The notes beneath the pieces are model-generated. The model had not been told where the DNA came from. It ran no database searches and saw only the letters and a program-made list of their open reading frames with translations. Both the position numbers and the translations under genes were made by a program. Shown one piece after another: positions 28,700 through 55,500 of a DNA stretch of 64,000 nt. How positions within the stretch are numbered: position 1 is the first letter of the stretch; every line of letters starts with the position of its first letter. Origin of the DNA: Podarcis vaucheri (lineage: Eukaryota); assembly GCA_965113315.1 (NCBI GenBank), contig OZ220364.1; one strand, written 5' to 3'.

Positions 28700-28786
28700 G
28701 CAGAGCCAGCCTGTCTGTCCTTTCCAGTCATGTGGATTTAGACAGCCCTATACGTCGGCGCTCACTGCTGGGGCTTCTTTCTCTAG
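28700..28786 (+). CDS. TCF7: TCF7 symmetric cassette exon (QSQPVCPFQSCGFRQPYTSALTAGASFSR), equivalent to TCF-1 exon IVA / LEF1 exon 6
   Basis: cttcctgatcccag acceptor and AG|gtaagt donor; 87 nt, phase 2 to 2, open frame. Similar to LEF1 QGQPVYPITGGFRQPYPSSL. Confidence 0.88.
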
Positions 28787-30009
28787 GTAAGTATGAGCTG
28801 CCTAAGTCAGGACAAAATCGCTCTGCTTCTTTTGCAGTCCACGCCGTTCAAGCTTGCAGCACTTAGGGAGGCTTCTGGGTGGCAGCAACAGGGAAGGGAC
28901 TCTCCTGTTTTAGGCAGGTGGCTTTTTAAAACAACAAACAAACTTAGCACGCTCTCAAAAAGGAGTAACACAATTTTGGCTTTGGTCAACAATAGTAGGG
29001 GGTGGAGAGAGAGAACCCTCATGAAGATGCTGTAAAGTCCGTCTTCATGTGAGCACCACCACTGCAGCCTCAAAACGCCAGTATGTCTCTTAGTCTTATG
29101 TGGCTGGAGACAAAAAATAGAGTTTGTAAGTGCTTTGACGAAAGGTTTCACCTCTCATGGTGTGCAAATATTTCTTTTGTTCTATTGTTGCCTGTGGTTA
29201 AACAGTTCTTCCTCCCCAGATTTTTTTAAAAAACAGTAACAGCAGCAACAACAACAACAATGCAAAACTTTGCAAAAGTTATTTACCAGGCCTGGTAAGA
29301 AGGATGAGCACTCAAAAGCACTTTCAGCTCTCAAAAGAACCAACAACGCTGTTGTCTGTTTCCAGCATAAGGCTCCCCTTGTGGTATCACTTCATAACAC
29401 TGCAGAACATAATGGGCACCCTTATTACTACCTCTGCAATGTTCGTCATCTTCAGCTAACAAGAGTAGAAATTGGTCTTGTTTGGGACAGAGAACCTGAT
29501 AAATTCAAACCATCAGGTCAGGTTCTCATTCCTACCTCACTCCACTACTTGAGTCCACTGTCAGCTTTCCTCCATGCATCATGCACTACTTGAGTGCAAG
29601 GCAGATGCCTGGCAATGTCCTCCTTGTTCAGTTAATTCCTTGTATGGCCCCTGACAAGAGCCCTCACTTGGTTTAAGATTGCTGGCTTTGGTAACCTGGA
29701 AATGTATGGAAATTTACAATGGCTGAGGATGGCAGTAAACTAGAAGCATCAGTGTACCATGATGCAAACCAAATATTTGCTTTTGTCAGGCTGTTCCTTT
29801 TGTGGTGGCAGGACTGTGTGCTGCAGTGCCCCCCATGCAACACTTTAAAAAACTTAGACCTGCCTTCATAAGGGAACACAAATTTCCCATTGCCCCTCCA
29901 CATCTGCACTACCAATCCAGATGCTGGTTGTGAGTTGTTCAAGAATTCATTAGAAGGATCTGAAGCCAACTTCCATCTTCCTTGTCTGTCTTGAGAAGGT
30001 CCGACAGGG

Positions 30010-32876: not shown

Positions 32877-33039
32877 GAAATCACAACCAGAACCAAAGAG
32901 AGAGAAGGAAGCGAAGAAGCCTACCATCAAGAAGCCTCTGAACGCTTTCATGCTGTATATGAAAGAGATGCGGGGGACAGTCATTGCTGAGTGCACCTTG
33001 AAAGAAAGTGCAGCCATCAATCAGATATTAGGAAGGCGG
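32877..33039 (+). CDS. TCF7: TCF7 HMG-box exon 1 ([54 protein letters not shown])
   Basis: TACTAAC branch point at 32840-32846, pyrimidine tract, AAG acceptor and CGG|gtaag donor; 163 nt. [22 protein letters not shown] is the TCF7-type HMG box. Confidence 0.98.
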
Positions 33040-35199
33040 GTAAGAGCGCAAAAAGGAGGCAGGGGTGTTCTGATGACTAGGGAGGCGTCATGGATATGCG
33101 CTCGCAAATGCATCTTCAGTACTTCCAGAGGCTGTGGGCTTTTTGGATCCATGGTTTAAGAACATGGAGAGAGCCTTGACTAGAAGATCAGGCCTATCTA
33201 GTCCACTATATTGTTCTCACAGCACCCAGCCTGATGTCTGTGGGAAGCCTACAAGCAGGATCTGAACACAGGCTTCATCCAGCCTCCTGAAGAGCAAATA
33301 CAGACCCAACTCCACTGGGTTGGGAAAGATGGTGGAAGATGGCTGGCCTTTCATGCTTGGTGATGTAGATTCCCAAATGGCCATTTGCAAGCTGAATTAG
33401 CTGGAGGTTCCTGCAGCGCTGTGGATGGGCTGCTATGCTGCTGTTAGGGTAACCATGCTCAGCAAGGAGGTTAATGGGGTGTGTGGGTGAAGCTGGGCTC
33501 AAGTGAAGCTGGGACTGGTGATTGTGGCCCATGCAGGGTATTTCTTTTCTTTAGGATACTCATTAATGGTTTTGAAACCACTCTCTTAGTTGTAGTGGCC
33601 TGGCAGACTCTATTACAGACTTGCAGCAGAATCTGAAAGGGTCAGCAGAAACTTAGGGACCCAAGGCCTCCATGCTTTTACTCCACCTCCTCCCTATATA
33701 GCCTAACTGTCCTCCACTGAGTGCATTTATGTGGGCTTCAAGATCCACTATAATGAATTTCATAGGTTGTCTTAAGGAACCTTACGTTGCTGTAGGAACT
33801 GCCAAGGAAAGCCTTCAACGCCTTGCTTTGTGTTTTATTGTCTTTTGCCAGCCCACTTCCACCTGTGGCAGACTGTATGCCACTCCTCACGTCACTGAGC
33901 ATAATTCATTTTATTATTGGGGTTTTCCAAGGCTGCTGTGTTGTCAGGAAATTTAAGTTGCAGCAATATGTTTTCAGCTAAGACTCCAAAATTGTTTCTG
34001 GATTACTTCTAACATGTAAAGTGCTTTTCACTTCACAAAGCACTCGTCTGCAAAACCATGTGAGACAAGTCCCAGTTATTTTCACCATGTAAGTGGGGAA
34101 CTTTTGAGTGAGGCCTTGGGACCTACCAGTGACCACTCAGCGATTCTATGGCTGAGCAAGGATTTGACTCTGGGTTCCCCAAGTTCATGATCAGTGGATT
34201 TACTGGGCTCCTTCCCCCCCCCCCTTAACCTTGGCATACAACTTTCCCTTGCTTCTGTGAGCACAAACCACTGAGCCACACAACTTTAAATTTAATCCCA
34301 AGAACTCTACATTATAACTCTGATTTTAAATTTTGACAGTAAAGACCTGGTTTTTCCTGTACTTTTGTTTGTTCTGTAGAAGCCAAAGGAGGAGAAAACC
34401 CACAAAAAGAAATGGTTGTTTAGTCCAATGTGGGCTTCTCCATTTTCCCAAAACAGTTTTGTCCTACTTGAGCAGTCAAAATGCTTCACCATTCATGTCT
34501 AGAAATAAGAGACTGTTGCTTTCTGGTTATATGGCAAAGGCTTCCTGCTCCCTGCACACAGCAGTCTATTTGAATAAAAACAGAGAGCTGTGTGCAACTA
34601 CATTACAGTGACTAGAGTAATGATGTATAAGGACCAAACTAAGTCTTTGCTTAGTATGTAGCAGGCAGCTTAGCATCTAGCATTTTTTTAGTTGATTACA
34701 GGTTCTGGGGGTGGGGCAGGTAATTGTTTGCAGTGCATAGGGAGGGGAGCTTTATCTACTCTTCCCCAGCTGCAACCCACCTGAAAATCTCCACTACCAT
34801 CACTACCACCACTTGGTATGGCTACAAACATTAAAGATTTCCCATTGATACCAATGGAAACTTTATTAAATTATTCCCTTGCCTTCCAAAATTCCAGAAA
34901 CTTTCTGTTTTCCGATTCAGGGTGGTTTTGCCGGTCCTCTCAGAAGTGGTTGTGAGCTGCCTCAGCACTGTTTCCATATGTGGCAGGCCTGGGGAACATT
35001 TGGCCCTCCAGGTGCTGCTAGGCACACCTCCCATCATCCCTAGCCATTGGAGCTGGTGGGAGGTGCAGTTCAGCAACATCTGCAGGGGCAAAGGTTCCCT
35101 GGGCCTGATGTTTGGTATCCACTCTTAGCATTTGCTCTTTTCTGATCAGAGGGATGGTGTCTCTTGGTGTCTCACGGCTTTCTGTGGTTTCTGTTTCAG

Positions 35200-35307
35200 T
35201 GGCACGCGCTGTCACGGGAGGAACAAGCCAAGTACTATGAACTGGCCCGCAAGGAAAGGCAGCTCCACATGCAGCTCTACCCCGGCTGGTCTGCAAGAGA
35301 TAACTAC
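35200..35307 (+). CDS. TCF7: TCF7 HMG-box exon 2 ([36 protein letters not shown])
   Basis: ctgtttcag acceptor and TAC|gtgagt donor; 108 nt. Canonical TCF/LEF HMG C-terminal half. Confidence 0.98.
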
Positions 35308-36162
35308 GTGAGTACTCTGGGTCTCTGGTGGCCTCCAAAGAATCTTATGTCCATGAAGTTTTGATGTTGCCTTTCAAACTGTGTGCCTTTCCAGACATTC
35401 AGCCTGAAGTGGGAGGGGCTGAAGTAGGAAGGGGGCACAAGCATCGCAAAAGTGGGAAGGGAAACTGAGAGCATGGGCATCACCCACAGCCCTTCCATGC
35501 CTGACCTTCACTTGTTTGGGATGGAGGTCTGAAAGGGGCTTTGCTTGGGCAATGCCTTATCGGGATTCCCAGTATCAGAGAAGCTTGTAAGCTTATGCAC
35601 CCAAATGCACTTGCGTGTTTTTTAGGGGGGAAAACGTCAGACTTTCACAGTTTGCAAGTGAAGGTCAGATTTGGGGGGGGGGGGAGAAGCCATGTGCCAC
35701 TCCCACCACACCCACTTTAGCCCACAGGGCTCCAGGTCAAATCCCTGAAGAAGACTTATTTTGCAGATAATGGTTTACAGCAATTTTTCTCACAGATAGT
35801 GTGCAGATGACACAAATTCAGAGAAGCAATTCCCAGAGGGTTAGATCACAGGGACATATATATAGATAGTTGGTCAGGTTGACATTAGACGCAAGGCAGC
35901 CAACAATGCTGAGAGGTTTTCACTTTTAGGCTTCTGGATGTTTGGTGGGGCTGCTGGCTTTTCTCCCCTACCTTAACATCAGCTTCCCACACACCATGGC
36001 AAACTGCTTTTGATGTACACAAACACCAAGATCTAGGCACTTCAGTTAGAAAAAGAAGAGTTGGGAAAACCCCTACCGATCTCAAGGAGTCACCACACTA
36101 TTTCCCAGACTAGCACCCAGGTGTTCAAAGGAACCAATAGAGATACAAATTTAACTGGAGGG

Positions 36163-36490
36163 CAGGAGTGGATCTACTATGAAACAAATGAAGCTTAGGC
36201 TCCAGAGCCCTAATCCTGGAGGGGCCCCAGAAGCAACTTGAGTCCACATTGATTTTTGGGTCTAGTAGACCCAATTTGAGTGGCGTGACTCAAATTGTTA
36301 TTTTATTGTCTGTATTTCAACAATCCAAAAGTTTGAGAGTCAGTAGCACAGGTGTTATAAAGGTGTGATCTGTCACGGAACAACCCCATTGAAGATGATA
36401 ACAGAACTTACTCAGACATTGCTGCTGGTGGTAAAGGGGCCCCCATGACAGTTCAAGGTTCAGGGCCCCCAAAATGTAGTTCTGTCACTG
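36163..36490. mobile_element. Decayed hAT-like MITE; a similar-type remnant near 7144-7412
   Basis: CAG...CTG ends with repeated GGGGCCCC subterminal motifs. Confidence 0.45.
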
Positions 36491-36826
36491 CTGGAGGGTC
36501 CCTGCAGTAAACTCTTCTGAAACTACTGGGTTTAGGGGGTTAATTTAATAAACTATAATACATCACAATATTTCCAGCAGATTGAACATTGCCATGCTGT
36601 AGCTGTTATTCAACAGCTCTTTTTAGCCCAGATGTAGTAGAGTGCAATCCAGATAAAGTTATGTATACCTGATATTAATATCTACATAGAGAGTGGCTGT
36701 GGGTATCTATGTATATTGGAAGGGGAGAAATAAGAATGCCTGGTGGCAGAAGGGAGTTGGGAGTCCAACCATATCTAGAGGGCCTCAGCTTCCCCAACCC
36801 TGTGCTTCTGCCTCCATCTTTCCTGC

Positions 36827-37012
36827 GCCTGTGTGGTGTAGTGGTTAAGAGCAGTGGACTCGTAATCTGGGGAACCGGGTTCGCGTCTCCGCTCCTCCAC
36901 ATGCAGCTGCTGGGTGACCTTGGGCCAGTCACACTTCTCTGAAGTCTCTCAGCCCCACTCACCTCACAGAGTGTTTGTTGTGGGGGAGGAAGGGAAAGGA
37001 GAATGTTAGCCA
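36827..37012 (+). mobile_element. tRNA-derived SINE (Squam3-like), 3'-truncated
   Basis: A box TGGTGTAGTGG, B box GGGTTCGCGTC, body ...GGGTGACCTTGGGCCAGTCACAC...; family name from recall. Confidence 0.8.
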
Positions 37013-38339
37013 CTCAAGTCCAAACTCTTTTTTTTTCTTCTTCTCCTTTGCTTCCCCTCTTTCCATGGATCTCAGAGGCCCTTGTGCTCTGTATGCCTCC
37101 CTCCTTGCTAGCTAAACACAACATCCAAAAACGTGTTTCTCCTAAACTATTAACCTCTGATCTCTTTCTCCCCCTCCACTTTTTGCCCTTCTTTAAATTG
37201 TAGTAGGCAAGATAGTAGTGGGAAAATATGGTTTATATTATTATTATTATCATCATATTAAATAGTGTTGGTTTCAGGATATGAGGGCCCTGAGCCATGC
37301 AGCCATCAGTAAGCCGCCTAAACCCTGAAGAGGCAGCACATAAAAACTGAGAATTCTCTTAATGCTGCATCCGATCTTTTTGGATACTCTTTGCAAAGTG
37401 GGAAAGGTAGTTCTGTCTGGGCAGTGGCCTCCTCCCCGTTGGGCTTGAGCCGCTGGCAAATGTCCAACATCTGGAGCTGGCCGAAGGAATCAAAATGCAA
37501 CAACTGCTAATGAGGTGCGACTCCAATATATTCAGTTTCTTGTTTGATTGAAACTTAGCATATTAAGGGTCTGTTTCATAACTAGTAATTTATCTGTTTA
37601 CACTGTGGAGACACTTTAGTTTGAGGGTTTGCACTCCCTGTTTAGAAGTTCATGGTAATACCCACTTTCCTATCGTCTGTCTCCAGGTGCTCGCAGTGTG
37701 AAATAGGCAGGAAAGCTGTGAGGTAATAAGCAGTGGTTTCTTTTTAATTTATATGAGCTTGCACTAGATTTATGGTCATCAGAAAAAAGGCCCTCAAGAG
37801 AAATTAAAATGCACAGAGAGAAGAGACTCGCAGCTAATAATAATAACCACACCCATATTTGTCTTAGAGCTCTTAATTATATCAATGCAAATAAACACGT
37901 ATTCTCTCTTGGGTGATATGTCATACTTAACTTTTGTTTGACATGATCATACACTTACCTAGCGAGAGATTAATATTGCTCAATCCATCTTGATCACGGC
38001 TTGCCCCAACATCATGTGCCGCGTTTGCTTTTAGCTCATGCTGACTCTGCATTTTGCATTTGCCAGGTTCACATTGCTAGGTCCTGTTTGCTTCCATTGC
38101 CTCTTCTGATCTCATCCATGGAAGGTGACAAAAGCCCAGGATTTAAAGAAAGCAAATACTGCCCAAATGTCAGCTGATAGCTGAACTGAAGCAAATACTT
38201 CAAATTTGATAGTTCCCTTCCCTTTCTGAAATGTGTGCCAAAGATCTTGGGGGTTTAGGAGGCTGTCTGAGTGAACCCAGCATCATCCAAGCTTCTTTGA
38301 ACTCTACTGTTCATTGATTTGCCTTCATTCTATCATATA

Positions 38340-38556
38340 TTTATCAAATTTGTATCCCACCTCTCCTCCAAGGAATTCATACCTGGCTCTCCATTTCCAT
38401 ATTACCCTCACAACAACCCTTTGAGGTACTTTGGGCTAGGAGTTGGCGACTGGACCAACTTCACACCCAATGAGTTTTGTGGCAGAAGATGGAGATTTGA
38501 ACCCTGGTCTCTTGGGTCATGAACTCGACACTCTAACCACTACACCACTCTGCCTC
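38340..38556 (-). mobile_element. Decayed Squam3-like SINE
   Basis: ctctaaccactacaccac (reverse A box), tttgaaccc (reverse B box) and ccctcacaacaaccct body. Confidence 0.65.
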
Positions 38557-38857
38557 TCCCTGTTTCTAATGGTCCTGCCAGGCCAACACTTCTTTGCTTT
38601 AAATTTGAGAGACAACTGGGAAAGGAAGTTGCAGTTTGCAACTGTACTTCCTGTCTGCCCCCCCCCAAAAAAACACAACATATGTGAGAGCTTATATCTC
38701 ATTAAAAGAGGTTCATCCAAGCTGTTTTCGTTGATGCATGCCTGGTTGGCAGCGTTGAAATTTTAATTTTTTTAAGAGAGGGCTTCCCACACCCTCCTCG
38801 GGACTTGTTAATGCACATGAACATGCAATTATGGGGCATGTGCCCATCAATGAGCCC

Positions 38858-38990
38858 TGTATACATTTAGGGAAGTTTTTAATGTTTGATGTTTTGCCAC
38901 TTTTTATTATTACTAATAATAATATTCTGTTGGGAGCTGCCCAGAGCGGCTGAGGAGGCCTAGCCAGATGAGCGGGGTATAAATAAATCA

Positions 38991-39028
<38 letters not shown>
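38858..39028 (+). mobile_element. 3' tail of an L2-like LINE ending in (TAT)n; related tails near 40470-40535 (-) and 51010-51080 (+)
   Basis: gctgcccagagcggctg ... gccagatgagcggggtataaataa followed by (TAT)n, repeated in the window. Confidence 0.65.
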
Positions 39029-41672
39029 GCCAACTCTGTGAGCCGCTTTTCCACCCCAGAGTGCAGCTGCAGTGTTTAAAAGTCTGTAGTTGGCTGGGCA
39101 GGGCTGTGTGCATGCATCTTCCCTGTAGACTCAGCACTCCGCAAACGCAGTTTGTGCTCCATTGTCAGGTAGTTCTACATCCCAACTTCCTGCACAAGCG
39201 CAGCATATCACCAAATTTACATAGGCGGCTGTCTTATTCCAAGTCGGACCACTGGTCCAGCTTGCTCAGTATTGCCTACACCAACAGGCGAGGAGGGGTC
39301 TCTCCAAGGTCTACCTGGAGGTGCTGGAAACCAAACCAGAGACCTGCATGCAAGCAGATGCTCTACCACGGAGCTATGGCCCTTCGGCTCCTGTGCATCA
39401 TTCTCTTCCTATCAGGTGCATGCCAACATGGGTGGTAGTTTCACAGCATGTGAGCCTAGAGCAAGAGTAGGAAGATCTCTGGTGCTTGGAGGCTACTGTG
39501 CAAGAAACATATAGTTAGCCTTAAAGAACAGGGTACTTCTGAGCCTAGGAATTTGTTTTCAGTGCCAGAACTGAACCAGGTTCACATTCCCTTTTGCGCA
39601 GAAGTCCACCCACACGGTTAGCTTCCCTTACTTCAGCAGCCGGATTTAGGTGGCAAAAGTCAGGTTGCTGTTAAATAATTGAGAGTCAGAAATCTTTGCT
39701 CCAGGGATTGCAAATCACCCAGAGATCTGCTCAGGGTCCCCCAGAATTTCTGAACTCAAATCTTTTCCTCCATGCAGATATGCAACTATCTTAGCCTGGA
39801 ATCATCCAGCTAAATGTAAAATGAGGATTTTGCATATCGTTTCCTCAACTGCTTTAGCCAGATGGTTTTCTTCTAGGGTGTTTCCTTTCAACTTTTTCAC
39901 CATTCCCTATTTAGACTCATTTATAAATAGCCTGCTCTGGGAACTGGCAGAGAGTAAGCATTGGGCAACAACCTGGCCCCATTCTGTTTTTATTTTTATG
40001 CCACTGGAGGGAGCCTGTTTGCAGGTAATAGATGGCCCTCTGCTCAGCTTCACCTGTTTGCTTTTCATTTTTGAGAGACACATCTACCTTGTATCATCTA
40101 GTTTGGCCAACATATTACCCTTTAAGTATTCCCCTTAAAATGCCCGTGAAGTAGTGGTGTATTGCTTGGGATCCCAAATCCTCATCCCAGGGATAAGAGG
40201 AGAGGTGATCAAAGAGATCCTCTAGACTGGTCTTATATTTGGGGTATATTATTCTATGTGTTGATTACAGTAGATTTATTATGCTTTCCTTGTTCTGCAA
40301 TTCCGTCCAATTATTGCTGTCTGGAAGGGACCGTATACAGTGCAGCAAAAGTGGGATTTAAAAAAAGAAACCCAGAATATTCATGCTATGGAAAGTTATT
40401 TGATTTCAGCAGGAAGTTACAGGATATGCACTGATTGAAAATGAAGCATCATCATCATCGTTGTTGTTGTTGTTAATTTTTTATACCCCATCCATCTGAT
40501 TGGGTTGCCCGAACTACTCTGTGTGGCTTCCAACATAATATTACTCCCCCAGAACTTTTGCAGACGTTTGCGTATGGTAATCCCAACATGAATGTGCAAT
40601 TAAAAGGATATCTGGCGGGGCCCATAGGTTAAGTGGCCACATGCAGGAAGTTTTGCATGGGAGAACTCTACATATGTTCAGTTGTCCAACTCTACATATG
40701 TTCAGTTGAAGCTTCTCAGCTAGCAGAGTTGGGAAAGACTACAGAGTGAAATGTGGGACAAAGGGGACAAAATTCAATGGCATTTACTCCCCTGTATGCA
40801 TGCATAGGATTGCCACCTTGTACTCAGGTTTCTTGAGCAAGTTGCTTTGTTGCTGAGACTCGCCACTTTATCTTCTGTGGCTTTGGGGAGCTGCTTTGTT
40901 GCAGCAGCAAAACATCAGTGAATGCCCGTTTTGCAATGGCACCCATGGCAATTTCTCAAACATATATTGGAGAATCCACAGCCATAACAAGTTTGGGGGA
41001 CTCTGAGTTAAAGTATTTAACCTGGAAGGTCTGAGTGTTCTGCCTCGGAGCAACAAGACCAGTGATGTGGGCTGGCTGAATATAAGGAAGTCAGTTCGTG
41101 AAAGTGACTGCCTGACTTCTGGGCACTGCATGTTTCCCTCCCCTGTTAAATGAACAGCCCATGGGAAGGCTTAGGAGTAGACTAGGCCCAGGCCCAAATG
41201 TGCTTATTGTGATATGCTGGAAGCCAGGAAGCAGCTGCTTTGGGAATCTCTCTGCCACCCTGCCCACACTGACTGTTAAGCTCTATCCCTGAAGGGAGGA
41301 GGAGAAGGAAGAATTTAGGTCAGCTTGCCGTCATATGACTTGTCAGACAGGAAATGAATTCACTCCCACACTTATGAGCTTTTCTACCTTTACGCAGAGT
41401 ACAAGGAGTTGCATTTAAATGTTTGCAGGTCTAAAACAGCAACCCCACCAGCAGCTATGACTCCCAAGCCAGCTTTGTTCACAAAGCTTGTGATGGCAAC
41501 TCATGAGAAAGCAAAGGATGACACATATTCCCTGAATGAACCAATGAAAGGACTGAGTGGCATTTCTTTAATAATTGCTGAGGAAAACAAAAAACACGTG
41601 CAAAGGAGCCAACTATTTGCCCCAAAGTTGATGGACGTTGCCATTCAAGTAGTGTGCATGCACTGCATCATG

Positions 41673-41707
<35 letters not shown>

Positions 41708-41708
41708 G
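41673..41708. repeat. (TGAT)n microsatellite
   Basis: Direct reading. Confidence 0.95.
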
Positions 41709-43354
41709 TGAGTGATTGGATTTATATACTGCCTTTCAGCATAAGATCTCAGGGCAGTTCACAGAATAAAATACAGGATAAAAAGCAAGTAAATAAGTAA
41801 AACAAAACAGCAAAATATTAACCCCCACTTCCCACAGGCACATTTTAAAGGCTGTAGAATATTAATCAGTCAAAGGCAAACACTTACCTGTTCTTCCCAT
41901 GTATTTTATTCAAGTTGCCACCCCTGGACATAGGGGTGAAATAACGGGGTTGTATCTAACTCTGTCCATGTTGAACAGACTTCTGCATGTGTGATGAGAC
42001 TTCACCTTCCTTTCCTTCCCCCTGCAGCTCTCTACACACCCTCAAATCGGTTCTGTAACCCATGGGGATGTTCCAGCCAGATTTTGAGGGTTCATAGGGG
42101 GCTGCAGGGGGGAAGAGAGGAAGACTAAAGTTCAACAGCCTTAGCAGACGTCTGCTCAGGCGACGTTGGATTCTGCTCACTGAAAACACCAGCGTGGATG
42201 TCTTAAGTCTTTTGCAAAAAGGCTTCCTTAATTAATGCATGGTCTCTTGCTCTTGTGTTGCTATAGCTACTTTTCTAATTTCCTTTCCTAATAGCTCTCC
42301 ACTGACGCATCTTATTTGAAGACATTTCTGTTAGGCTGCTGCTTTGTGTTTTGTTTTTGTTTTTTGTAAGTAAAGAAATATTAACGTCCCAAAATGTAGA
42401 GTTTTATTAAGAACAAATACAAGGGCATCATTTCCCAGTACTCTTTCTATATGCTATTAAAAAGTGATGTTCACTAAAAGGGTTGGTCAGCAGAAGACTT
42501 TCCAAGTCTTCTGGAGATAAAACAACCTGATGGAAAATGTGCCAAGCACAGCAGAGGGTGGGGGAATCAACATGGCTTCACAATCCACAGGGAGATCCTG
42601 CACATGAACTGCAGCTGTGCATGGCCACACTCGATCCAATTTAAATATAAAGAGCAGGTTTCCCCTAGGAAAGGAGTGGGGCAAGGGGGAAAGCGCTCTA
42701 ACCTGTGCTTTCTAGGCATGGGACAAGTGGAAGTGTGGATGAGCCCTTAATGCCTCCTTCACCTCCTTCTAGAATGGGAGCAGGGGAGGAGGCTGCAGGG
42801 GAAATCAGCAAAAATTCTACTTTTCCATTAGCAAAAGCTTCTGCTGGATCAAAAGCCCTTCCCAGAAGTGCACCGCTGGATGTGGCCCACTTGAGGTTTG
42901 GTGTGTGTTTTGGCCCCTCCTAAGTATCTGCAGGATTTTCAAGAGGTGCTTCATGGTGTGTGAAGACTAAGCAGGGATGACCTGCTAGCTGGCTACAACT
43001 ATTCTGCCCGTAAACCCACAGTACTGTTATTATTTTTTACAACAGATGTGACCCAAAATAGTAAATACCCAATGGTTAAAAAAAGAAAATAAATGTATGT
43101 CTGCTTCCTCCCTCCAAGGCCTTCAAAATTCATCTGCCATTTTGTGACTCGAGGCGCTTTTAGTTTCCCAGGTTCCTTTTCAGCTGCACAAGTGGCTTGT
43201 TTTAATCAGCCGGGTTGGGGTGCTGTTCTCTGTAGAGGCTCTCTGCTAGGTTGTTTTTCTATCTGCTTCCTGATGTGCTTTGTGTACGTATTTGGTGCAT
43301 TGTTTCAGTGCTCCCCGCAGCTGCTCTTTTAACGCTTTCCCCCTTGCTCTTCAG

Positions 43355-43447
43355 TCTTCTTCAGGCTCTTCGTCCCGTGATCACACAAAGTTTAACTCAG
43401 GGCCCCTGGAATTCAGCAGCACCTCGGGGCCGGTTTCTGCGGCAAGG
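43355..43447 (+). CDS. Candidate alternative in-frame TCF7 cassette exon (SSSGSSSRDHTKFNSGPLEFSSTSGPVSAAR) between the HMG box and basic tail
   Basis: tttaac branch-like site, pyrimidine tract and ttcag acceptor; strong AGG|gtaagc donor. 93 nt, open in phase 0, matching the host intron phase. CpGs retained. No homology recognised and no transcript evidence. Confidence 0.55.
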
Positions 43448-44783
43448 GTAAGCGAATTCTGCAGCGAATGTCCTTCTGCATTACGGCAGTGAGAGTCTGT
43501 AACCATCTGCCACTCATGCACCCACCTAACCCAGCGTTGGCTGCAGAATTCCAGGAGCCCTGAGCTTTTCCATGGCCATAGAATTGCTCATTGGCTGTGG
43601 AATTTGTTGAGTTGAAGGGGAACAATCAGTGGGCTATGTGTGCTTGTGGCGAGCTTGTGCATCAGGGAAGCGAGTGGACGCTTCATGACAGCACTTTCCT
43701 TTTTTTAGACAAATAGGTCGTTAATGTCTCATCAGCTTCAAAAACAAAACCATTGCCCTTGGGAGCATGGTTTCGGGGGAAACCCTTGCACAGAACTGAA
43801 CAAATAAATGGAGGGTTTGCAGGTTGGACGTGTGGCTTTCCTTTAAAAGCAGTAAAAACAATGCATCCATGACCTGGAACATATTGGCCTTGCACAGGGT
43901 CAAAGGTGACCACCAAGAAATACATTTTTTTTGGAGTGGCAATTTCATTTTGAACACAATCAGCCTCCTGAGCTGCAAATGCTGTGGACATTATTTTATT
44001 TAAATTTGAATCGGATGTAGCAAAGTAGACAAAGGATGGGTTGTTTGCATCCCACAAGGAAACAATGCAGACTGTACTGATTTGATGTGTCATCGCACAA
44101 ATATATATTTTTTAATAACAATGGGGTTGCTCTTTCTGGATCCAACCAACAAAGGTCCATCTGGTCCAGCAGACAGAGCCTTCCAGGAAACCCACAAGCA
44201 AGGCATGAAGGTAGTGCCCGTCCCCTTGTTTGTCCCCAGCATCTGGTAATGATCATGGGTTGTGAAGGTTTGTGTGTCTTGCACATACATATTACCTCTC
44301 TTAAGATACTACTGTCCATGCTAGGATTTTGTCTTACCTGTGGCTTTTGCTAGTCAGCTTGTGCGCTAAGGTGACAGCCCATGCATTCTAACCCCCTTCC
44401 TTAACTGAATTCCATTCCTACGCGGCGTGTACATGGATAAGCCACCTTGGCTTTTTGCCTCAGCCAAACTGAAAGGGAGGAAGCCTTAAGGGGCTCTCCA
44501 GAAGTCTATCCATAGGTCTTCTGCCTTCCCCCATCCTAGTAACTTATTCAGGTTGTCAGAGTCATGCATGTTTTGTAGCCCACCCTATCCCCAGGGAGAG
44601 CAATAGTAAACAGAGCAATTGTTGTGTTAATCCAAAAAGGCTAATGGGAGAGGCTGGTACTGGTTCCCCTCTCGCCTACTGGTAGTTGATGCTTTCTAGT
44701 GGAAGCAGCTGGTAAAGCAGCTAGAAATCTGGCTTTTGGTTCTTCTTGGTAACTGGTGGCAGGAGGACCTGAGCTTTTCTTAG

Positions 44784-44954
44784 GGGAAGGGTCGGGGCTC
44801 AGTGGCAGAGCACCTTCTTTGAATGCAGGGGGTCCCAGATTCAATCCCTGGCAACTCTAGGTAGGGCTGGGAGAGACCTCCGGTCTCAAATCCTGCAGAG
44901 CTGCTGAGTCAGTGCAGACAGTCTGACTCAGTACTGTATAAGGCAGCTTCCTAT
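44784..44954 (+). mobile_element. tRNA-derived SINE (Squam2-like); more decayed relatives near 30945-31090 (+) and 39215-39385 (-)
   Basis: GCTCAGTGGCAGAGCA A box, GATTCAATCCC B box and ...ATAAGGCAGCTTCCTAT tail. Confidence 0.7.
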
Positions 44955-45068
44955 AGAGAGAAATAGCTCGATGTGCCGTCTTTCTTGACTGCAGCCAACA
45001 GTCAAGGCCTCCTTAAGCCTGTTATTTGGTGCAGGACATCAAGCTCTGACTTGGCATTTTATCTTCCG

Positions 45069-45336
45069 CTTCTCCTGCGCAAAGAATGAGGGGCGCAATT
45101 TGCAACAGAGAAGCTCTGGAAGGAGGAAGGTGTTTAACTTTCCACTAGTCTGTTTTCCTCTGCAACTCAGCAAGCTGCTGTGTTTCTGCTGCAAACAGAA
45201 ATGGGAGAAAGCAGCTGCAGCTAAGGGGCAGCTGAAGAAGATAGCTGGCAAGGAAGGGAAGGGTGAAGTGCTCTTCTCCTGCCCAAAGCTCCTCTGTTGC
45301 AAATGGTGCCCTCTAGCCCAGTTTGCAGAGGAGAAG
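45069..45336. repeat. Long imperfect inverted repeat, probably an old MITE
   Basis: Arms of about 60 nt; perfect 13-bp core 45098-45110 / 45292-45304. Confidence 0.7.
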
Positions 45337-47014
45337 TAGCTGTTGGGCTTTCAGGTTAGAGCACAATGTGCCGTACCGTCTTTAGAACTCGAGGCCAGTG
45401 GAGGAGCACATAAAAAATCAAATGCAAGTAGAAAGCTCGTACATCAGAGAGAACACTTGGCTAGAACCTTGTTCCTTGTCATGCTAGCTTTCCATGTGCC
45501 GCAACATTCGATGTAGGGAAGCATTCAGATATGCAAAACCCCACGGCCATTCCAATGGGAAATGTCCATAAGGATACCACCACTAGCTGTCTTAGAATGT
45601 TGGAGTTCATTTTTCAGCATTGGAGAGGCAGTCCAAAAACTGTATGTGGCAACTCAAGACAGTTTCTCAAAACCATACACATGGATTTAAAACATGTTTC
45701 CATCTTACAGCCGACACTGGCAGAGCTTGTAAGACAGTAACTGCCACCAGCATTATGTTTTAATTGTAGTGTTGGGCAGCTGCGTAATAATGTAGGCCTC
45801 CCAATGCAAGCAAAATCAATACTATGTGGAGAGGAGTGTAAGGAAAGACAATCTGGTTTGATTTTGCCTGCTTTCATCAGCGAAGCGGTTTTTGTGCCTC
45901 GCTAATGACAAACATGTTTAAACACTGTTTGAACTTAAAATGGAAAAGGCTTTGTTGTGCTCCATGTTTGCAATCTCGTCTCTAGAAGTGAAAACAAAAA
46001 AGCTGCAGTCCTCAACATGTTTACAACAGCGAGTGTGTCCTCTTGAGGGACTTCCTTCTGAATGAAATAGGACTGGGACTGGGCTGCCCAAGCTTGCAAA
46101 TACTATGCACTTTTCAAGCTGCTAGTGAGTGCAGTTTCTGTACCCTAGAAAAATCTGAGACTAGCATGAAGACCTCACAAATGCTGGTGCAAGAAAGATG
46201 TGAATAACGAAAAACAGACCTTAGGTTTATCTCACTTTTATTTGTAATAGTTACTTTGACATTATTCTTCATTCACGGAAAGTTGCTTTGGTGACCAAAG
46301 CTCATTTTTAACTATGATGTTCCATGTGCTGTTCCTGAAATACGGTCCAATTTCTCCCCCCGCTTAAAAGACATTTTAAAAAGAGACCTTTTTCATTGAG
46401 AAAGTAACTGTGTGCAGGCTGCAAGCCTGCTGAAAATAAGATCACTGTCCACTTTATTCCACCCATGCACAGCAACCTTTTGCTGGAAATACATTCCTTC
46501 ATGTATGCACAGAATGCAGCTGGTCTTTGTTCAGATGGCTGGTGTGTGTGCATAAAGAAAGTTAGGTTTGCTCCTTAAGCCAGGTCATTGCACCGTGGTG
46601 GCAGCACACTTTTTTCTGACACTTTGGGACACAGGAAAGACTGTGGCACAATCCTCATCTATGAGCTCAATATATCTTAGCTGTGGGGAAGAGTGGCAGT
46701 CTTTCCGGTATTTCAAAATGTAAGCCAGAGACAATCTATGTGCAGGTAGGCATGAAAAGGGGACTGGATTCATACCAATTTGTTCCAGCTATGGTCAGGG
46801 ACCATAATATCTTAGAGAAGTATTTTATCAGAGACAATGAACAAGAGTGCAGTTTGGGATTTTTTTTTTGTGTGTGTGTGTACTGTAAAGGATGGCATAA
46901 AAATTTAATGAATAAACTACCAGTATGGTGGGGCAGTGCCATTTATGAGGAGGGTCCCTGGCCTCCCCATGCTCTCTATTTTGACCTCTTTTTATATTTG
47001 CAATCTGCCTTTAT

Positions 47015-47376
47015 AAGGTAAAGGTAAAGGTACCCCTGCCTGTACAGGCCAGTCGTGTCCGACTCTGGGGTTGCGCGCCCATCTCGCTTAAGAGGCCGGG
47101 GGCCAGCACTGTCCGAAGACACTTCCGGGTCACATGGCCAGTGTGACAAGCTGCATCTGGCGAGCCAGCGCAGCACACGGAAACGCCGTTTACCTTCCCG
47201 CTAGTAAGCGGTCCCTATTTATCTACTTGCACCCGGGGGTGCTTTCGAACTGCTAGGTTGGCAGACGCTGGGACCGAGCGACTGGAGCGCACCCCACCGC
47301 GGGGATTCGAACCGCCGACCTGACGATCGGCAAGTCCTAGGCGCTGAGGTTTTACCCACAGCGCCACCCACGTCCC
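47015..47376 (-). mobile_element. Sauria SINE, full length, with 12-bp TSD
   Basis: Close reverse complement of the 22708 copy; TSD AATCTGCCTTTA at 47002-47013 and 47381-47392. Confidence 0.93.
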
Positions 47377-48120
47377 TACAAATCTGCCTTTAGCATATGT
47401 TAATTTCAGCCACAGCATAAAGCACATGAAATGTTGATGTAAAAAGTAGCCATAATAAATAGCTAACCAGTCTTGGGGGGGGGGGAGAGAGTTCCCAAGT
47501 AACATCCAATACTAACTGATGTTGAGAAGGGTGGGTGTATGTATGTGTACACACAGAGAGGTTTCTTGCTTTTAACTGTAATCGTAGCCTTTCCTTCTTT
47601 TACATCTATAGGTCCCAGGGGCTCCTCTCCCAAATCAGCTAAACTGTTGCTTGCAAAATGTAGGTCTGGAAATGGCAGACTGTCAAAAGCTCTACCAAGC
47701 TGGTGCCACTCTCAGCCAGCTGGGCAGAATGCTGCAGTATGAGTTAATGAGGGGTTACTTCTGAATTAAGAATTCAAAGCAATAGGTGGATCCATCTCAT
47801 TTGTGGTTTTCTTTCAGTGTGAAGAAGCATTTGTGTAAAAATGATGTACATTTTAAACAACATGTCCCTGACTGCCTGTAGAGCATATTTTGACCACTAG
47901 GGGGAGGGTGCTACCTGCAATTGCCAATTGCACACCATACAAGGGGTCTAGATTAGCAAGAATCCATGGTGACCAGAAATGAAGCAGGCAGTTTGGAAGG
48001 GATGAAAGTAGGAGCCTTGGCCACAACCCCCTTATTCCCTCTGGAAAGATATGCCTGTATTTGTTCACTTATGATTTGTGTTCTCCCCCCCCCCCCTTTT
48101 CTCTTTCTCTTTGATTCTAG

Positions 48121-48169
48121 GGGAAAAAGAAAAGACGAACAAGAGAAAAGCAGCAAGACTCCAACTCAG
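48121..48169 (+). CDS. TCF7: TCF7 basic tail / NLS exon (GKKKRRTREKQQDSNS)
   Basis: Long pyrimidine tract with ttctag acceptor and G|gtaaat donor; 49 nt, phase 0 to 1. Confidence 0.96.
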
Positions 48170-49044
48170 GTAAATCCACTGGTGCAAACTCCAGTACATT
48201 ATCTGGTAACCAACGCTTTGTTTATGTTGGTAGGGGATTAGTTGAGGCAGCTGAACAATAGCTATAATCTTCCTTTGGATTTGCATCTGTGGCTTAATGT
48301 GACTGGGGTAATCCATATCTATGCTAATACTACCTCCATTTCATCTGTAGACTGGGTTGCTATCTGTGCTTATAAACTTTAATCTGTGTTTCATTTTCAT
48401 ATGAGACCTAACTGCTATTTCTTCTAGCTTTGCTGCTATCTGCAATTGTCTCTCCTGTCTGCTCTCCTCTGACATTAGCCTCAGAGAAAAGGAATACTAT
48501 TCAGCTCATTCCTAGTTGCATTTTGACACATCAAATTTAGCCCCCTCCTCTTGCCATTAACTTTTATGGTTGTTACCGTTGTAGTTTCCCAATCACCTAG
48601 TTCTCTGCAAAGATGCAGAAAGCAAAAGGTCTTTAAAATGCAGTACAGTAGCAAATTCTTAACCTGTTATCCAAGAAGGGACTATTTTGCCATAAACTAG
48701 ATTTCTAGGGCAGGCAGAATCCTAACCCACAGAGTCTTACACATCATATCTTTGGGTGCTATCAGGCTAAAACATCTCATCAGCGCAAGCATTTCCACTT
48801 GTGAAATACAAACCCCCACCCCCATGCACACTCTCCCCAAATCTGCTCCATAGGATTGAGGGGAACTCCTAGAACAAAGTTAGGGGGAACACAGAGTGAG
48901 AGAAAGACCAACTGCACAAGCAGTGCTTTGGATAGAAGAAGAGATGGTAAGGGAACAGCTAGCTACAGATAGAACAGGTGAGGTCCCTGTGGACTAGAGG
49001 TGGGCAAATGTTGGCAGAAAAAATGTTGGTGGAAAAAAGAAGGC

Positions 49045-49545
49045 CCAGGCAACTACTAACCAGTCAACTTGACATACCAGGAATGTCCTAGAACAGATAA
49101 TTTAACAGTCTGTGAGCACTTAGAAAAGGATGCGGGGATTACTAAGACCCAGCATGGATTTCTCAAAAGCAAGTCATGCAATACTAATCTTTTTTCTTTT
49201 TTTAAATGGAGTTACAAGCTTGGTGGATAAGGGGAATGCTGTGGAAACAGCGTATCTTGATTTCAGCAAGGCTTTTGACTAAGTCCCCCATGATATTCTT
49301 GCGGGGAAGCCGGTAAGATGTGGGTTGGGTGAGGTAGCTGTTAGGTGGATTTGTAGCTGGCTGACTGACCGAACCCAATGAGTTCTCACTCATGGTTCCT
49401 CATCATTCTGGGAAAAGAGGACAAGTGGGTGCTGCACTTGTCCTGGGCTTGTTGATGTTCAACATCTTTATAAATGACTTGAAGGAATAGAGGGGTTGTT
49501 TGTCAAATTTGCAAATGACACCAAACTGGGAGGGGTAGCTAATGC
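49045..49545 (+). mobile_element. Decayed CR1 reverse-transcriptase fragment
   Basis: Remnants of QHGFLK.KSC.TNL, YLDFSKAFD and KFA(D)DTKLGG motifs, with stops and frameshifts. Confidence 0.85.
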
Positions 49546-49791
49546 CACTGTTCTCCCAGTCACTGCATTCTTGGCCCTCCCGTGTGAGGTTAGTTTTGGT
49601 ATTTGCCTAAACCTGCTTTGTTTCCTGAAGAGATGCTGCTTCCAGCAGAAACTGGGTTGATGTGGCCTGTTTAGTTTTGTCTCCAGCTGCTAAATTGATG
49701 CTGCATCTTTTCTTCTTCCTCTTCCTCCTGCTCTTGCTGCTGTTTGTGCCTCTGCCTTGCCCATTCTCCACCACGCATGCTCCTTCCTCAG

Positions 49792-49864
49792 ATCCTGCTT
49801 CTCCTAAGAAATGCAGAGCTCGCTTTGGTCTCAACCAACAAATGGACTGGTGTGGACCGTGCAG
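49792..49864 (+). CDS. TCF7: TCF7 C-clamp (CRARF) alternative exon ([25 protein letters not shown])
   Basis: ccttcctcag acceptor and AG|gtgtgt donor; 73 nt, phase 1 to 2. Nearly identical to human [25 protein letters not shown]. Confidence 0.97.
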
Positions 49865-52193
49865 GTGTGTATTGGATATCTTTGCTTTCTAAGCTTGTTG
49901 CTTACCATGCAGGTTGTTCTTTGCTGTGCAATTTTTATTTTTCATGCCCCTTTTCTGCAGCTGCCCTTGCCCCTAACACTACTAATGGCGCTCCTTATGG
50001 CCTGCCTAGGTTTTCCATGGATTTCAACTGTTTATGAGTGATGCTTCCAAAAGCTTTCTACTTCTGAGAAGGGAAAGTACAATGCCGGGGGGGGGGGGGG
50101 AATCTTAACCATGCAATCCTATGTATGTCTACTCAGAAGCAAGTTTCTTCCAGTGCAGACAGATGTCTGTTTTTTTTACATAACAGGAAGGGTCAAAGTT
50201 GGCATTCATTTCTCCCTTGTAGCATGGACTCCACGTACCTTCACACTTGCAAGATCTTCCTTTATGGGTATCACACTGGCAAGGTCTGGATGACCACATA
50301 GCCGGGAATCTGGAGTTGGGAATTCCCTGCACTGACGGAGGTTTAGATTAGATCACCTGTTGAGATGCTTTCCAATATTGTGGTTTTCAGCCCTTCAAAA
50401 TAAGTTTTTTCTAGATTTATGAATCACAAGGTCCAAAAACCTACTCTCAACAACCTTCCCATGTGCCTTTGTGCCATCACCATCATCCATTTTCTCTCAT
50501 TAAAGGGTGGAGTCTTGTTCTCTTATCAGGAGACTTCAGTGAAGAGAAAATTGGTTGTCTGAAGAGGGCCAGTATAGAAGGGGCATTGCAGCCACTGTGT
50601 ATCCAGTTCTTTGCTGTTCACACCTCCCCACAGAACACAGCATTTGTTACAGGAAGAACTGGTAGTTTCCAGCTACTATCTGATAAAAGTTGGTGATCCA
50701 GTTATTCTCATTAACCATTAAGTGGCTTGTCATCTTTTACTAGCAGGCTCTGTATTGAATTTCAGCCTAAAATTATGCAAAGCAATTTAAAAGGTCAACT
50801 CACAAGACTAGACTTCTGATTCCCACCCAGCAGCATAACTAATGCCAGTCTTAATAGCTTTCCTTTCAAAATGCAAGAAAATGATTTGCATTAATTAATG
50901 AACACTCCCTTTGCTTTTGTGCAGCACTGATTAGTCCAGAAGCAAATGAGCTGGGGCCTTCCTTACACCACCAGCAGAGTATTAGGGTCAAGGGGACATA
51001 TTCCTTATATATGTTGTAAGCCGCACAGAGTGGCTAGCCTATCCAGATGGGCGGGTATAAATAATAAAATTATTATTAATAGTTATTTGCAGGCCATGGC
51101 CACCTCTGTGCAAGTCTGCTATATTTTATTCATATAGCAGACCACAGGGTAGCTGGTGATAGGGAATACAGGTTTGGAGTATGGGATATACCTGCACCAA
51201 TGGGCCTAGTTTGAGGGCTTCTATGCAACAGGGAACAGAAAGCAGGGCTCTCTGCACACATATGACACCTGCTGTTGGCTGGTCTCATAATATTTGGTTG
51301 CTGGTTTTAGTACCTAGGCTAACTGATCTGTGATGTGTACATACACATGCACGCACAGAGAGACTTTTTTTCACATTACCACGCTGGTGTTCCACCCTAG
51401 AGATATGCAGAACTGCAACAATTGGTAAGAGTGATTTGTGACTTCATCATCTATGCAATTCAAGTGGGGCATGTTTACATGCAAATATTCTGTCAGGAGA
51501 TGGAGTGGGGTAAATAGCGACAAAAATAATCAATAGCATTTATTCCTTCCCATTCATATTCCTTGACCCCCATACATTTTACTTAATTTCCCCTCTCCCC
51601 AGTTCTGTCATTGTCTTTAGAGGGCCACATCCCTTTGGGAAGGTCATTCTGGAATGACCATTTGACCCATCTTTCTAACAAAGCAGCACACTATTTCATG
51701 CAAGCAAGATAAGAAGCTGATGTGCGCAGTAGCTTTCCAACTTCTTCAGTCATGGAAAATCCTCACGCTGCATTCACATGGCATTTTGCAAGTGACGGCA
51801 AATACAACTGATCACACCAAACTTTTCACATCTGCAATTTCTCCATTTCTTTGCTGCTACTCGTAAGCAGAACGCTTAGAACCTGCTGATCTCCCTTTAC
51901 AAGTATGCTGATGCCACAAAAGACTAATCTGCTTCCACTTTTGTCCACTCTGAAACAGGCTGCAGCACCATAGTTACACTGCCACCCAGTGGTAAACACT
52001 GCAAATTGTCAGTGTATTTTAGAAAAATGCTTCTGATGCAAGAGTGTGCAGCAGAGAGCTGACAAGAATAAACATGTATTTCCCCCACCACTCATCCAGC
52101 CTTTGCTGTGGGGTGCAGAGAAATGACTGTAATGACTGCTGTCACTCTATCATTTTAAGAATATGACCCTGTAAATTCACCCTTTATTTACAG

Positions 52194-52216
52194 ATAACTC
52201 TCTTCACTGTTCTTAG
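52194..52216 (+). CDS. TCF7: TCF7 upstream alternative acceptor segment, D-type tail (DNSLHCS*)
   Basis: ctttatttacag acceptor at 52193. Joined to 48169 it gives DNSLHCS-stop, matching the recalled human TCF-1D tail DNSLHYS. Confidence 0.8.
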
Positions 52217-52296
52217 GAGGAAAAAGAAGTGCATTCGGTACCTACAAGGAGAAGGACGCTGTGCCAGCCCAGTTTCTTCCGATGGAAGTGCTATAG
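52217..52296 (+). CDS. TCF7: TCF7 last exon read in the B-tail frame when the C-clamp exon is skipped (GGKRSAFGTYKEKDAVPAQFLPMEVL*)
   Basis: Joining 48169 to 52217 gives a peptide matching the recalled human TCF-1B tail GGKRNAFGTYPEKAAAPAPFLPMTVL; stop at 52294-52296. Confidence 0.85.
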
Positions 52297-52535
52297 ATTC
52301 CCCTCCCTCCCCCTTGGATGTGCTGCAGTGCATATCCACTGCTTTTACTTCAGACAAGCTTGCTGCCCCTGCTGATTTCACACACCAAAACCAAGCCAGT
52401 CCTTTCCCTGCATCTACGTGTATCAAAACTGCTACAAGCACATCAGGACTCACTTCCAAATGCTCAGCAGTGTCTCAAACATCTGTAGCACCCAGCGAAT
52501 CCTCAGGGTACAGTGTCCTATCAATAGGAACGTAG
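52217..52535 (+). CDS. TCF7: TCF7 last coding exon, E-tail frame (RRKKKCIRYLQGEGRCASPVSSDGSAIDSPPSP...SVLSIGT*)
   Basis: ttcttag acceptor; continues the C-clamp frame with RKKKCIRY; stop TAG at 52533-52535. Confidence 0.93.
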
Positions 52536-55500
52536 TACTCATGCAGCAGTGACCAGCAAGGCCGGCAAATTCATCAGGCACTTTGATGAGTGGTTTCACT
52601 ACCTGTGGAAGCTGCCAGAGACAAGCCTACCATGCCATCAAATGGCAGTCTCAAAGTCAGGAGAAAGCTGTCAATAATTGGAAAACATTGGAGCACTGAA
52701 AGTGCTTTTTATAATGTAAGTAAGGACACACGGTGTCTCTCTTCAGAAGTAGGAACAAGGACATAAAACTGCGTTCTGGTCAGTAACTTGAGAATTTCTT
52801 TGTCTACCAAACCAGCTAAAACTGAAATAGGACACCCAGATTTTTAAAAGTAGCTAAGAGGTGCTAAATGTTAGGCATTCTTTTCTTTCTTACAGTTCAA
52901 AGATTTGCATTTCAATCATAGTCCTCTTGTAGATATGACACTGGTATGCCAAAGCAGCTGAAAGAACAGTGTGGTTTTGTTTTACACAAGCCTAGTTGCT
53001 TGACAGGGGCAATGTAAAGTAGCTGACCTGTCTGGCATGAGAATATATGGAATAAATTATTACACCTCATCTTGTGAGGGGAAATGTTGATTCCAGGTGA
53101 AAGTATTCTTAATACATTTTGGAGGAGATACCCACTGCTTGAAAACGAATACTTATCAAATGATAAAGGAAGCATGCACTGGCTCCTTTAAAGTTTTAAC
53201 TGTCAAGTATTATTTTCTTGTCACTACCTTTAAACAATAAGTTACAATTCTTTTATTGCCCCATTTCTATTCACTATATACACTCTGGAAAACGGATCTT
53301 TCTGCAGGGTTTTTTGTTTTGTTTCTGTACAAACTTAGTGTGCATTTATTATGGCCATGCTTTGCTTTTATCACAAGCAATTACAGCAATGGATTGCAGC
53401 TGCAAAAAAAAAAAAAGGCGGCATTCTACTGCATTCCAAACAAAAAACAAAAATATTTTCTGCTATGACACTGAGCTCTGCAATGTGCATTAACTACGTA
53501 AAATTCATAAATGCTTATTTTGCATGATTTATTCTGTATCTGCTAGTCATTGGGACAGGCCAAGGAGTGATAAAAGGCACTGAAAAGCTAGACACATACA
53601 GCATCACTATAAATTTTACTAAGCACATTTTTGGTCTTCTAAAAACTTACCCAGACTAAGCCACCACACATTGTTAAGCCTTTGCTGACAGCCATTAAGG
53701 ACTAGAAAAGTATGCAAGGATCCTGATGTTGCTGAATTTTCTCACTCTGTACTAAACACTGTTACACAGATCATGGAACATATTACGAATTTAGCAATGT
53801 AAGCCCTGCTTGTTAGAAATAGTATGCGATACAATTTCTGACAGAGAGCCGTAAAACCTAAGCCTAGTCCCACTGCATTAGTTGCTCAAACACCTCAGCC
53901 TATTGTGCAATCTTTATTTTAAAAAATGATATTTGGGAGCTATGTGCTCCCTGCCCCCATTGCATTTCCAGTGCTAGGCAAAGATGGCTGCTTATTAGCC
54001 CTAATACCAGTCAAGCAACATCCTGTGTGTTATTTTTCTTGGAGGCCCCAAACACACACAGAATGCCATGTGTATTAAAATACTGCAGAAAGGAACAATG
54101 GCCTCTTGGAGAAAGGATAGGAAAATGCATACTATGGAATAGCTAAAATTTGCAGGTGGTATTATTCTCTCACTTTGCAATGAGTCCTATGTCCTTCACA
54201 GTTATACTTCAGCAAGTTTTAATATAAACCCACTTGTATACAAGGGGCATGCAAGCACCTACTCCAGTGTGTGGACACAAAGCTGAACCACACAAGAGAC
54301 GCTCCCCATTCAACTCAAAAGCATCAAATGAAGCTGAAAAGGTATGTAGCCTCGGGCAGGAGTGACAAATATAATGAAGGCAAACCTTAAACTCATGTTC
54401 ACTTTTCCTCCTGTAACACTTCTTCTCTAGCCTGACCAAACTGGCACCATTACTGATCTCATGGGCAGAAAGTTGCCAAAACAATTTAACCATTTGGTAA
54501 AACTGAATCCAAACATAAAAGATTTCTTGCCAAAATAAACGACTTCCAGATACTCAACATAAGGGCCAGATTCAACTAACTAGTCCCACTAGCGGAAGTC
54601 TGCCCTGAGAATTCAACTAGCATAATGGTGATATATGATTACAGCCTTAAAAACCTAGGTCACATGAGTCATATTCACATTAACCTCACTAAAAGACTGT
54701 TGTTCCCATTTTTTTTTAGCAAACCTGTCTTTGCTGTTTGAAAAAAAGTGCGCACTAACACAACCAGGAAGTCTCTTCTTTTCACCTGCAGCATTTTGAA
54801 CACAAAGCACAGTATTGCAATTATTGCAGTGGTATAACCAGAATACACCGTTTTAATATCCAATCTATTTTTGTATTTAAAGCAAATACGTAAAGGCCTA
54901 AACTATTTTTCTACATATTGGAATAAGCTCTACAGTATATAAAGCTTGTTTGCACTAGTATACCCCCTTTTAACTTTTTTTTTTTTTTTTGCAGTATTCC
55001 AAAACCTATTCCTAGACAATCTTTAAAAATGTTGCTTAATTGTAGTGGAACTTTGCAAGCACAAGTACACTGGCACAAAGAGGCACACATCTAAAAAGCC
55101 CTTGCGTGTTATGTGGTAATGTGGACATGTTCCATTTATATAACTGAAATATTCTCGATTTCCTCCCATCTCTGCACCCTGAATTAATTTCACTCTCAAT
55201 TTTTCTGAGATCAATATAGTATGTATATGAGAGTATATTTTCTGGTTAAATATTTATATACCACACACAATCATGATTTCCTATTTTTAAAAAATGTTAA
55301 GGTTTTCCTGTTATTTTTTAATATACAAAATACGTGCACACCACTGCCCTTACTGTACTGGCAAAGCCTTTCCTCTTGTACATACATGCATGCGTATACA
55401 CACACAACATAGGCTAAAATCATCATTAGTTAAAAGCTGGTATGTTCCTACCCAACTACTAAAGGAGAAACTGTGAAATCTAAGGCCCAAATCTAGGTTG

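Follow-up and report, generated by a model that had tools for sequence, protein, structure and literature searches.

In the accessible text of three reviews (PMC4999783, PMC4963812, and PMC5996498), the TCF/LEF HMG box and the basic tail that follows it are treated as a single continuous unit, in which the tail stabilizes DNA binding and is also the nuclear localization signal (NLS). For LEF-1, the available part of the structural report places this tail in the major groove, where it is proposed to allow a sharper bend (PMC11458547). The splicing of human TCF7 is one close comparison: as far as the accessible part of that account goes, its alternative exons are Ia, Ib, IVa, and IX, together with three acceptors in exon X (PMC4543455). 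The locus described here belongs to the same gene and likewise derives isoforms from cassette exons, but the human alternative exons given there all precede the HMG box or follow the basic tail, with no entry falling between exon 7 and the exon of the basic tail. In Pangolin/dTCF and Platynereis Tcf, splicing alters the TCF DNA-binding domain, as it does here; according to the portion consulted (PMC5996498), those genes swap duplicated HMG exons, whereas TCF7 keeps its box as it is and gains a spacer ahead of the tail.

RNA structures offer a second set of comparisons, each drawn from the available portions of the reports. A conserved hairpin spanning an exon-intron junction promotes skipping of the optional exon 7 of DROSHA (PMC5473138), and conserved complementary regions in general tend to favor skipping at splice sites (PMC8052449). 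DROSHA and TCF7 share a stable stem over an exon-intron junction with the donor enclosed, although the TCF7 stem is a prediction; moreover, the DROSHA hairpin is microRNA (miRNA)-like and bound by Microprocessor, whereas that of TCF7 is predicted to have a 25-bp stem, 119 enclosed nucleotides, and a second possible partner. Competing RNA pairings are known from the splicing of ATE1 and Dscam1 (PMC7797038 and PMC12962786), and TCF7 too has two sequences predicted for one partner, but ATE1 and Dscam1 choose between mutually exclusive exons, while TCF7 has a single cassette exon with one of the competitors inside it.

We describe a spliced TCF7 cassette exon, as old as the tetrapods, that places 30 to 31 residues rich in Ser and Gly after the HMG box and before its basic tail. 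The full reading, in which a predicted RNA fold-back likely controls inclusion and the resulting isoform would bend and hold DNA less tightly, is one to which we give about even chances. The same exon occurs at the same position in RefSeq/UniRef TCF7 isoforms of lizards, snakes, crocodilians, caecilians, and salamanders (e.g., XP_032995979.1 of Lacerta agilis, XP_019361838.1 of Gavialis, and XP_069508646.1 of Ambystoma), all of which are automated models.

The TCF7 locus in the analyzed window

The window, i.e., the whole stretch of 64,000 nt analyzed from contig OZ220364.1 of Podarcis vaucheri, holds most of the lizard TCF7 gene on the plus strand, to which all coordinates below refer. Its assignment to TCF/LEF is borne out by a TCF-type HMG box, a basic tail, a C-clamp exon, and TCF7-type tails, in that order and on one strand. 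The TCF7 protein of the lacertid Lacerta agilis (P0011) maps onto the window exon by exon, locating one HMG exon at 32878-33039, an exon at 35200-35307 that encodes the second half of the HMG box and ends in WSARDNY with a phase-0 donor, an exon at 48121-48169 that encodes the basic tail/NLS GKKKRRTREKQQDSNS, the C-clamp exon at 49792-49864, and the last exon. Between WSARDNY and GKKKRR lies a phase-0 intron of 12.8 kb (35308-48120), hereafter the host intron.

Several other features of the gene were recorded. The HMG box at 32965-32976 reads MRGTVIAEC in this lizard, Lacerta, and Salvator, which is two changes within an otherwise invariant box from the MRAKVIAEC of most squamate TCF7. Upstream of the box, an optional exon of 29 residues (QSQPVCPF...; 28701-28787) is probably the counterpart of human exon IVa. 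Directly 5′ of the C-clamp exon, the intron at 49629-49784 has a translation that is alike in this lizard, a skink (P0003), and a monitor (P0009), forming the conserved flank of another optional exon. The host intron's most stable fold is an imperfect 190-nt palindrome at 41972-42158, which may be the remnant of a small DNA transposon; a tRNA-like Rfam match at 44788-44859 is possibly the head of a SINE, and a CpG-rich repeat of 350 nt at 47016-47367 recurs at two other places in the window and shows very high read depth.

A spliced cassette exon parts the HMG box from the basic tail

The exon occupies 43355-43447 (93 nt, 31 aa), and its sequence is as originally predicted: the frame is open in phase 0 and reads SSSGSSSRDHTKFNSGPLEFSSTSGPVSAAR, with 11 Ser and 2 Thr. 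It is preceded by a polypyrimidine tract and acceptor AG (43335-43354, ending CTTCAG at 43354), with a branch-point-like TTAAC (43329-43333; consensus match only) 26 nt 5′ of the acceptor, and is followed by the donor GTAAGC (43448-43453; AGG/GTAAGC at 43447/43448). The several CpGs that had been claimed for it number five, a count reached in 3.8% of the 93-nt windows of the intron. By a rough splice-site matrix of approximate frequencies, usable for ranking only, the donor is 2nd of 692 GTs and the acceptor 10th of 923 AGs within the host intron. As a whole, the exon ranks fourth among all AG..GT pairs of 30 to 300 nt in the intron and second among those that are in frame and free of stops; since other pairs outrank it, sequence alone would not have picked it out.

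The decisive evidence is instead external, coming from sequencing runs and stored proteins. Runs were examined as assembled contigs whose RNA status was guessed (RNA for 18 of 24 candidates); they were chosen through a downstream stretch that lacks the exon (47601-57600) and mapped on 35001-52700. Two of four runs (X4 and X18, from different organisms and different studies) contain both of the junctions whose presence had been proposed as a check, 35307^43355 and 43447^48121, each with GT..AG ends, and within each run the two joints have equal depth (13.1 and 53.4). The mean depth in the 590-nt bin that holds the exon matches the value expected from the exon alone in one run (93 × 13.1 / 590 = 2.06, versus 2.04 shown) and in the other (92 × 53.4 / 590 = 8.33, versus 8.32), so the flanking intron is without cover. 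In the other two runs (X1 and X14) the exon is uncovered, which says nothing about its use. Contig depths of exon and last exon (13 versus 55 and 53 versus 110) are too rough for an inclusion rate. As the skip joint 35307^48121 is absent among the joints listed for the four runs, skipping rests on database models.

The stored proteins agree with the predicted position: 153 of 160 TCF7 proteins span the junction, of which 103 carry the insert and 50 skip it, although the set was gathered through insert-bearing cluster representatives and is biased toward inclusion, so these counts are not an inclusion rate. Exact joints in two runs from two organisms, together with in-frame conservation from salamanders to snakes, contradict a chance pseudo-exon or splicing noise. 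Such a reading, which could appeal to the other intronic AG..GT pairs that score as well by the rough matrix and to the two runs in which the exon is uncovered, is hardly credible, and we regard 43355-43447 as a real cassette exon with near certainty.

The original prediction had also pointed to a second AG that would give an 83-nt frameshifting variant. That AG is present at 43363-43364, but its use finds no sign: no stored protein (0/160) has the 83-nt frame, and no joint to 43365 occurs among the joints listed for the four runs. The 43365 acceptor nevertheless bears on whether the element mainly makes a TCF7 without its tail, either from this acceptor, which outscores 43355 by the rough matrix and whose 83-nt paths drop GKKKRR and terminate within the last exon, or by read-through of the donor to an in-frame TGA at 43490-43492 (with AATAAA at 43803), as one Anolis UniRef model (P0002) ends. 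In the snake-type open reading frame (ORF) discussed below, however, the codon at 43490 is Trp, and both X4 and X18 have the depth expected of the 93-nt exon, without intron cover; with the 83-nt frame lacking from the stored proteins as well, we consider a mainly tail-removing role highly improbable.

Two further observations concern the 3′ end of the gene. X4 and X18 each use two acceptors of the last exon, at joints 48169^52194 and 48169^52217, producing the DNSLHCS and GGKRSAF tails that are also present in database isoforms. Contigs of all four runs cover unspliced intron within 46180-52700, beginning at about 46.2 to 47.5 kb and reaching the last exon, and upstream cover is sparse; this may reflect retained 3′ introns or an internal start, and the picking of runs with 47601-57600 biases the observation.

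Distribution and age of the exon

Although the exon had been put forward as unrecognized, RefSeq and UniRef models already include it, and it is no lizard oddity. The suggested search of predicted TCF7 isoforms puts the insert precisely at the WSARDNY/GKKKRR junction in 34 species, comprising 25 squamates (15 lizards and 10 snakes), 3 crocodilians, and 6 amphibians (3 caecilians and 3 salamanders). Since the exon is thus already annotated automatically, the surprise is limited, but it is apparently unstudied. We found no description of the exon, its regulation, its fold-back, or its peptide motif in the literature within reach of our search; catalogues of splicing events could list it.

Included and skipped forms are both present in 21 of the 34 species, and every model has a single cassette exon, with no cluster of mutually exclusive exons. 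Inserts are 30 aa long in geckos, crocodilians, and amphibians and 31 aa in other squamates, and apart from an upstream extension in Pogona no other length occurs, the frame being kept across distant species. The inserts of Lacerta and Podarcis are identical to that of the window. The Pogona extension (models P0006, P0045, P0049-P0051, and P0056) is an additional piece of 28 residues after WSARDNY; it starts like a read-through of the HMG-exon donor, and the same frame is closed in this window.

In all five bird TCF7 proteins listed, from three species, the insert is skipped. Searches among cluster representatives sharing exact words (164, 27, and 19 candidates), a weak method that sees in-frame products only, found no turtle, bird, frog, mammal, or fish match to the insert, and the ESM Atlas gave no usable match for it. 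The occurrence of the insert in salamanders, caecilians, crocodilians, and squamates, as recorded in sequence databases, dates the exon back to the ancestor shared by amphibians and amniotes, making it tetrapod-old. That ancestor lived approximately 350 million years ago.

The original prediction described the insert as a phosphorylatable spacer that could change nuclear import, and a stronger form of this idea would make it mainly a phosphorylation switch on the adjacent NLS. In favor are the 9 to 13 Ser plus Thr found beside the NLS in every insert variant and the kinase control that reviews cite for TCF-1 localization. The conservation is less accommodating: Ser alone varies from 7 to 11, only some Ser positions are conserved, and in amphibians and crocodilians two or three Cys replace lizard serines, two lizard N/S positions being Cys in these groups. 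The GKKKRRTREK stretch, moreover, is unchanged in all included isoforms. As the NLS is untouched and several of the lizard serines are unconserved, an effect on import is the weaker idea, and judging from these sequences import is expected to be largely kept; a function mainly as a phosphorylation switch is very unlikely.

A predicted RNA fold-back across the donor

The original prediction missed a 25-nt inverted repeat through which exon and intron can fold back on each other. The exonic arm (43396-43420; codons S-G-P-L-E-F-S-S) is complementary at 23 of 25 positions to an intronic arm at 43540-43564, and because the two arms flank the donor, the donor lies within the predicted fold-back. The intronic arm has a second predicted partner of 15 nt at 43454-43468 (14/15, 93%), which reads EFCS in the exon frame in this lizard, Anolis, Lerista, and the snake-type ORF. 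A second hairpin, with an 11-bp stem, is predicted at 43568-43602.

The 221-nt block at 43390-43610 folds with −89.5 kcal/mol (z of −3.85), none of 200 shuffles being as stable; among 115 intron windows, 3 equal this stability. Pairing of the two arms has a probability of 0.915, and once the exonic arm is blocked, the alternative pairing with 43454-43468 reaches 0.93. The exon-paired fold (−107.2 kcal/mol) is approximately 18 kcal/mol more stable than the alternative (−89.4), such that a switch would need a protein or cotranscriptional folding, and the modeled accessibility (unpaired state) of the donor shifts only from 0.36 to 0.58. Palindromes as such are not rare, as inverted repeats of at least 21/25 occur at 13 sites in the window (N run excluded), and the minus strand folds even better (z of −5.47), as would that of any palindrome.

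What marks this fold-back out from the other palindromes of the window is its conservation, as seen in translated sequence. Two snake-type ORFs (P0004 and P0083), whose exon peptide is that of colubroid snakes, continue through the intron in the exon frame. Codons match the window at 26 of 31 positions in the exon, 19 of 24 in 43448-43519, 27 of 28 in 43520-43603 (the intronic arm plus the second hairpin), and 10 of 38 beyond 43604, the similarity thus ending just past the second hairpin. This comparison uses translated ORFs from one lineage and is blind to synonymous third positions; as such, it speaks for conservation and not for covariation. A phmmer search of 1.84 billion representatives with the snake-type ORF returned only itself and two lizard proteins, the intronic arm had no match in a metagenome scan, and no Rfam covariance model matched within 43200-43750 up to an E of 5. 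The 17 distinct inserts all agree at 4 of the 8 arm codons. Scored against the intronic arm of this window and not that of each species, the three commonest arm changes (S>C in 7, S>G in 5, and P>S in 3 of 17) would preserve a pair or add one, while four rarer ones (F>L in 3 and S>N, S>N, and S>V in 1 each) would break one.

The same comparisons could be read as marking a DNA element, either an intronic enhancer or the relic of an old palindromic transposon, with the exon a tolerated exonization and its peptide a near-neutral linker. The intron is more alike than the exon, changes in the peptide are frequently both radical and due to a single base (G>W, S>C, and G>E), both strands fold, and the DROSHA hairpin is itself derived from MER5A, according to the part of that report available (PMC5473138). 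At odds with this view are the frame, which is kept in 17 of 17 distinct inserts (in a protein search blind to frame-broken copies), the residues that are invariant outside the arm (SS, S, T, and AAR), the halt of similarity at the end of the second hairpin, and the lack of a second copy of the element elsewhere in the window. We judge a DNA element fairly unlikely.

A duplex of this kind could alternatively be a substrate for ADAR, editing of which would recode the insert, for instance by turning AGC (Ser) into GGC (Gly) at 43415 or 43418, or alter its splicing. ADAR prefers a UAG context, in which no exonic A stands, and no A>G occurs at the exon among the differences listed, from contigs that drop rare variants. 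The geometry is otherwise suitable, a coding exon being paired with a nearby intronic arm with two mismatches; Gly, the product of such editing, stands at the 43418 codon in 5 of the 17 inserts, and conserved complementary regions are enriched in editing sites in the accessible text of PMC8052449. We hold an editing role to be improbable.

We return to structure-controlled splicing. The folding models, read together with the conservation, lean toward a fold-back that is functional in RNA. When the intronic arm pairs with the exon, the donor would be held inside the fold and the exon would tend to be skipped; when it pairs with 43454-43468 instead, the exon would be free and inclusion more frequent. 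A binding protein, or folding during transcription, could switch between the two pairings.

Predicted effect on DNA binding

In an alignment with the LEF-1/DNA structure (2LEF), the insert begins exactly where the GKKKKRK tail begins. The insert, with a net charge of −1 to +1, amounts to a near-neutral Ser/Gly spacer of 30 residues. In the included form, the three HMG helices, the final Tyr, and the NLS would remain intact, but the basic tail would no longer be tethered beside the major groove. Such an isoform would be expected to reach the nucleus, to retain the C-clamp and the ability to bind beta-catenin, and to show lower affinity for DNA and a smaller bend; it would be a tuned-down TCF7 and not a null. 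By analogy with the LEF-1 structure, as given in the available part of its report (PMC11458547), a more weakly binding isoform is a reasonable inference, and the included form probably has reduced DNA binding or bending.

Implications

A broader scenario would cast the element as a two-state RNA switch of the ancestral tetrapod TCF7, in which one intronic arm with two partners doses an isoform in which box and tail are uncoupled. This tuning of Wnt/T-cell output at the DNA-bending step would then have been kept by salamanders, caecilians, crocodilians, and squamates, while mammals, and perhaps birds, would have lost the switch, which could explain why TCF biology never met it. We offer this scenario tentatively, as possible but doubtful.

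The predicted fold-back is a compact and directly testable candidate for structure-controlled splicing. A natural isoform that parts the HMG box from its tail, in animals from amphibians to snakes, offers a ready test of the role of the tail in vivo. Work on TCF7 in axolotl, newt, anole, and gecko involves a DNA-binding variant that is not listed for human TCF7.
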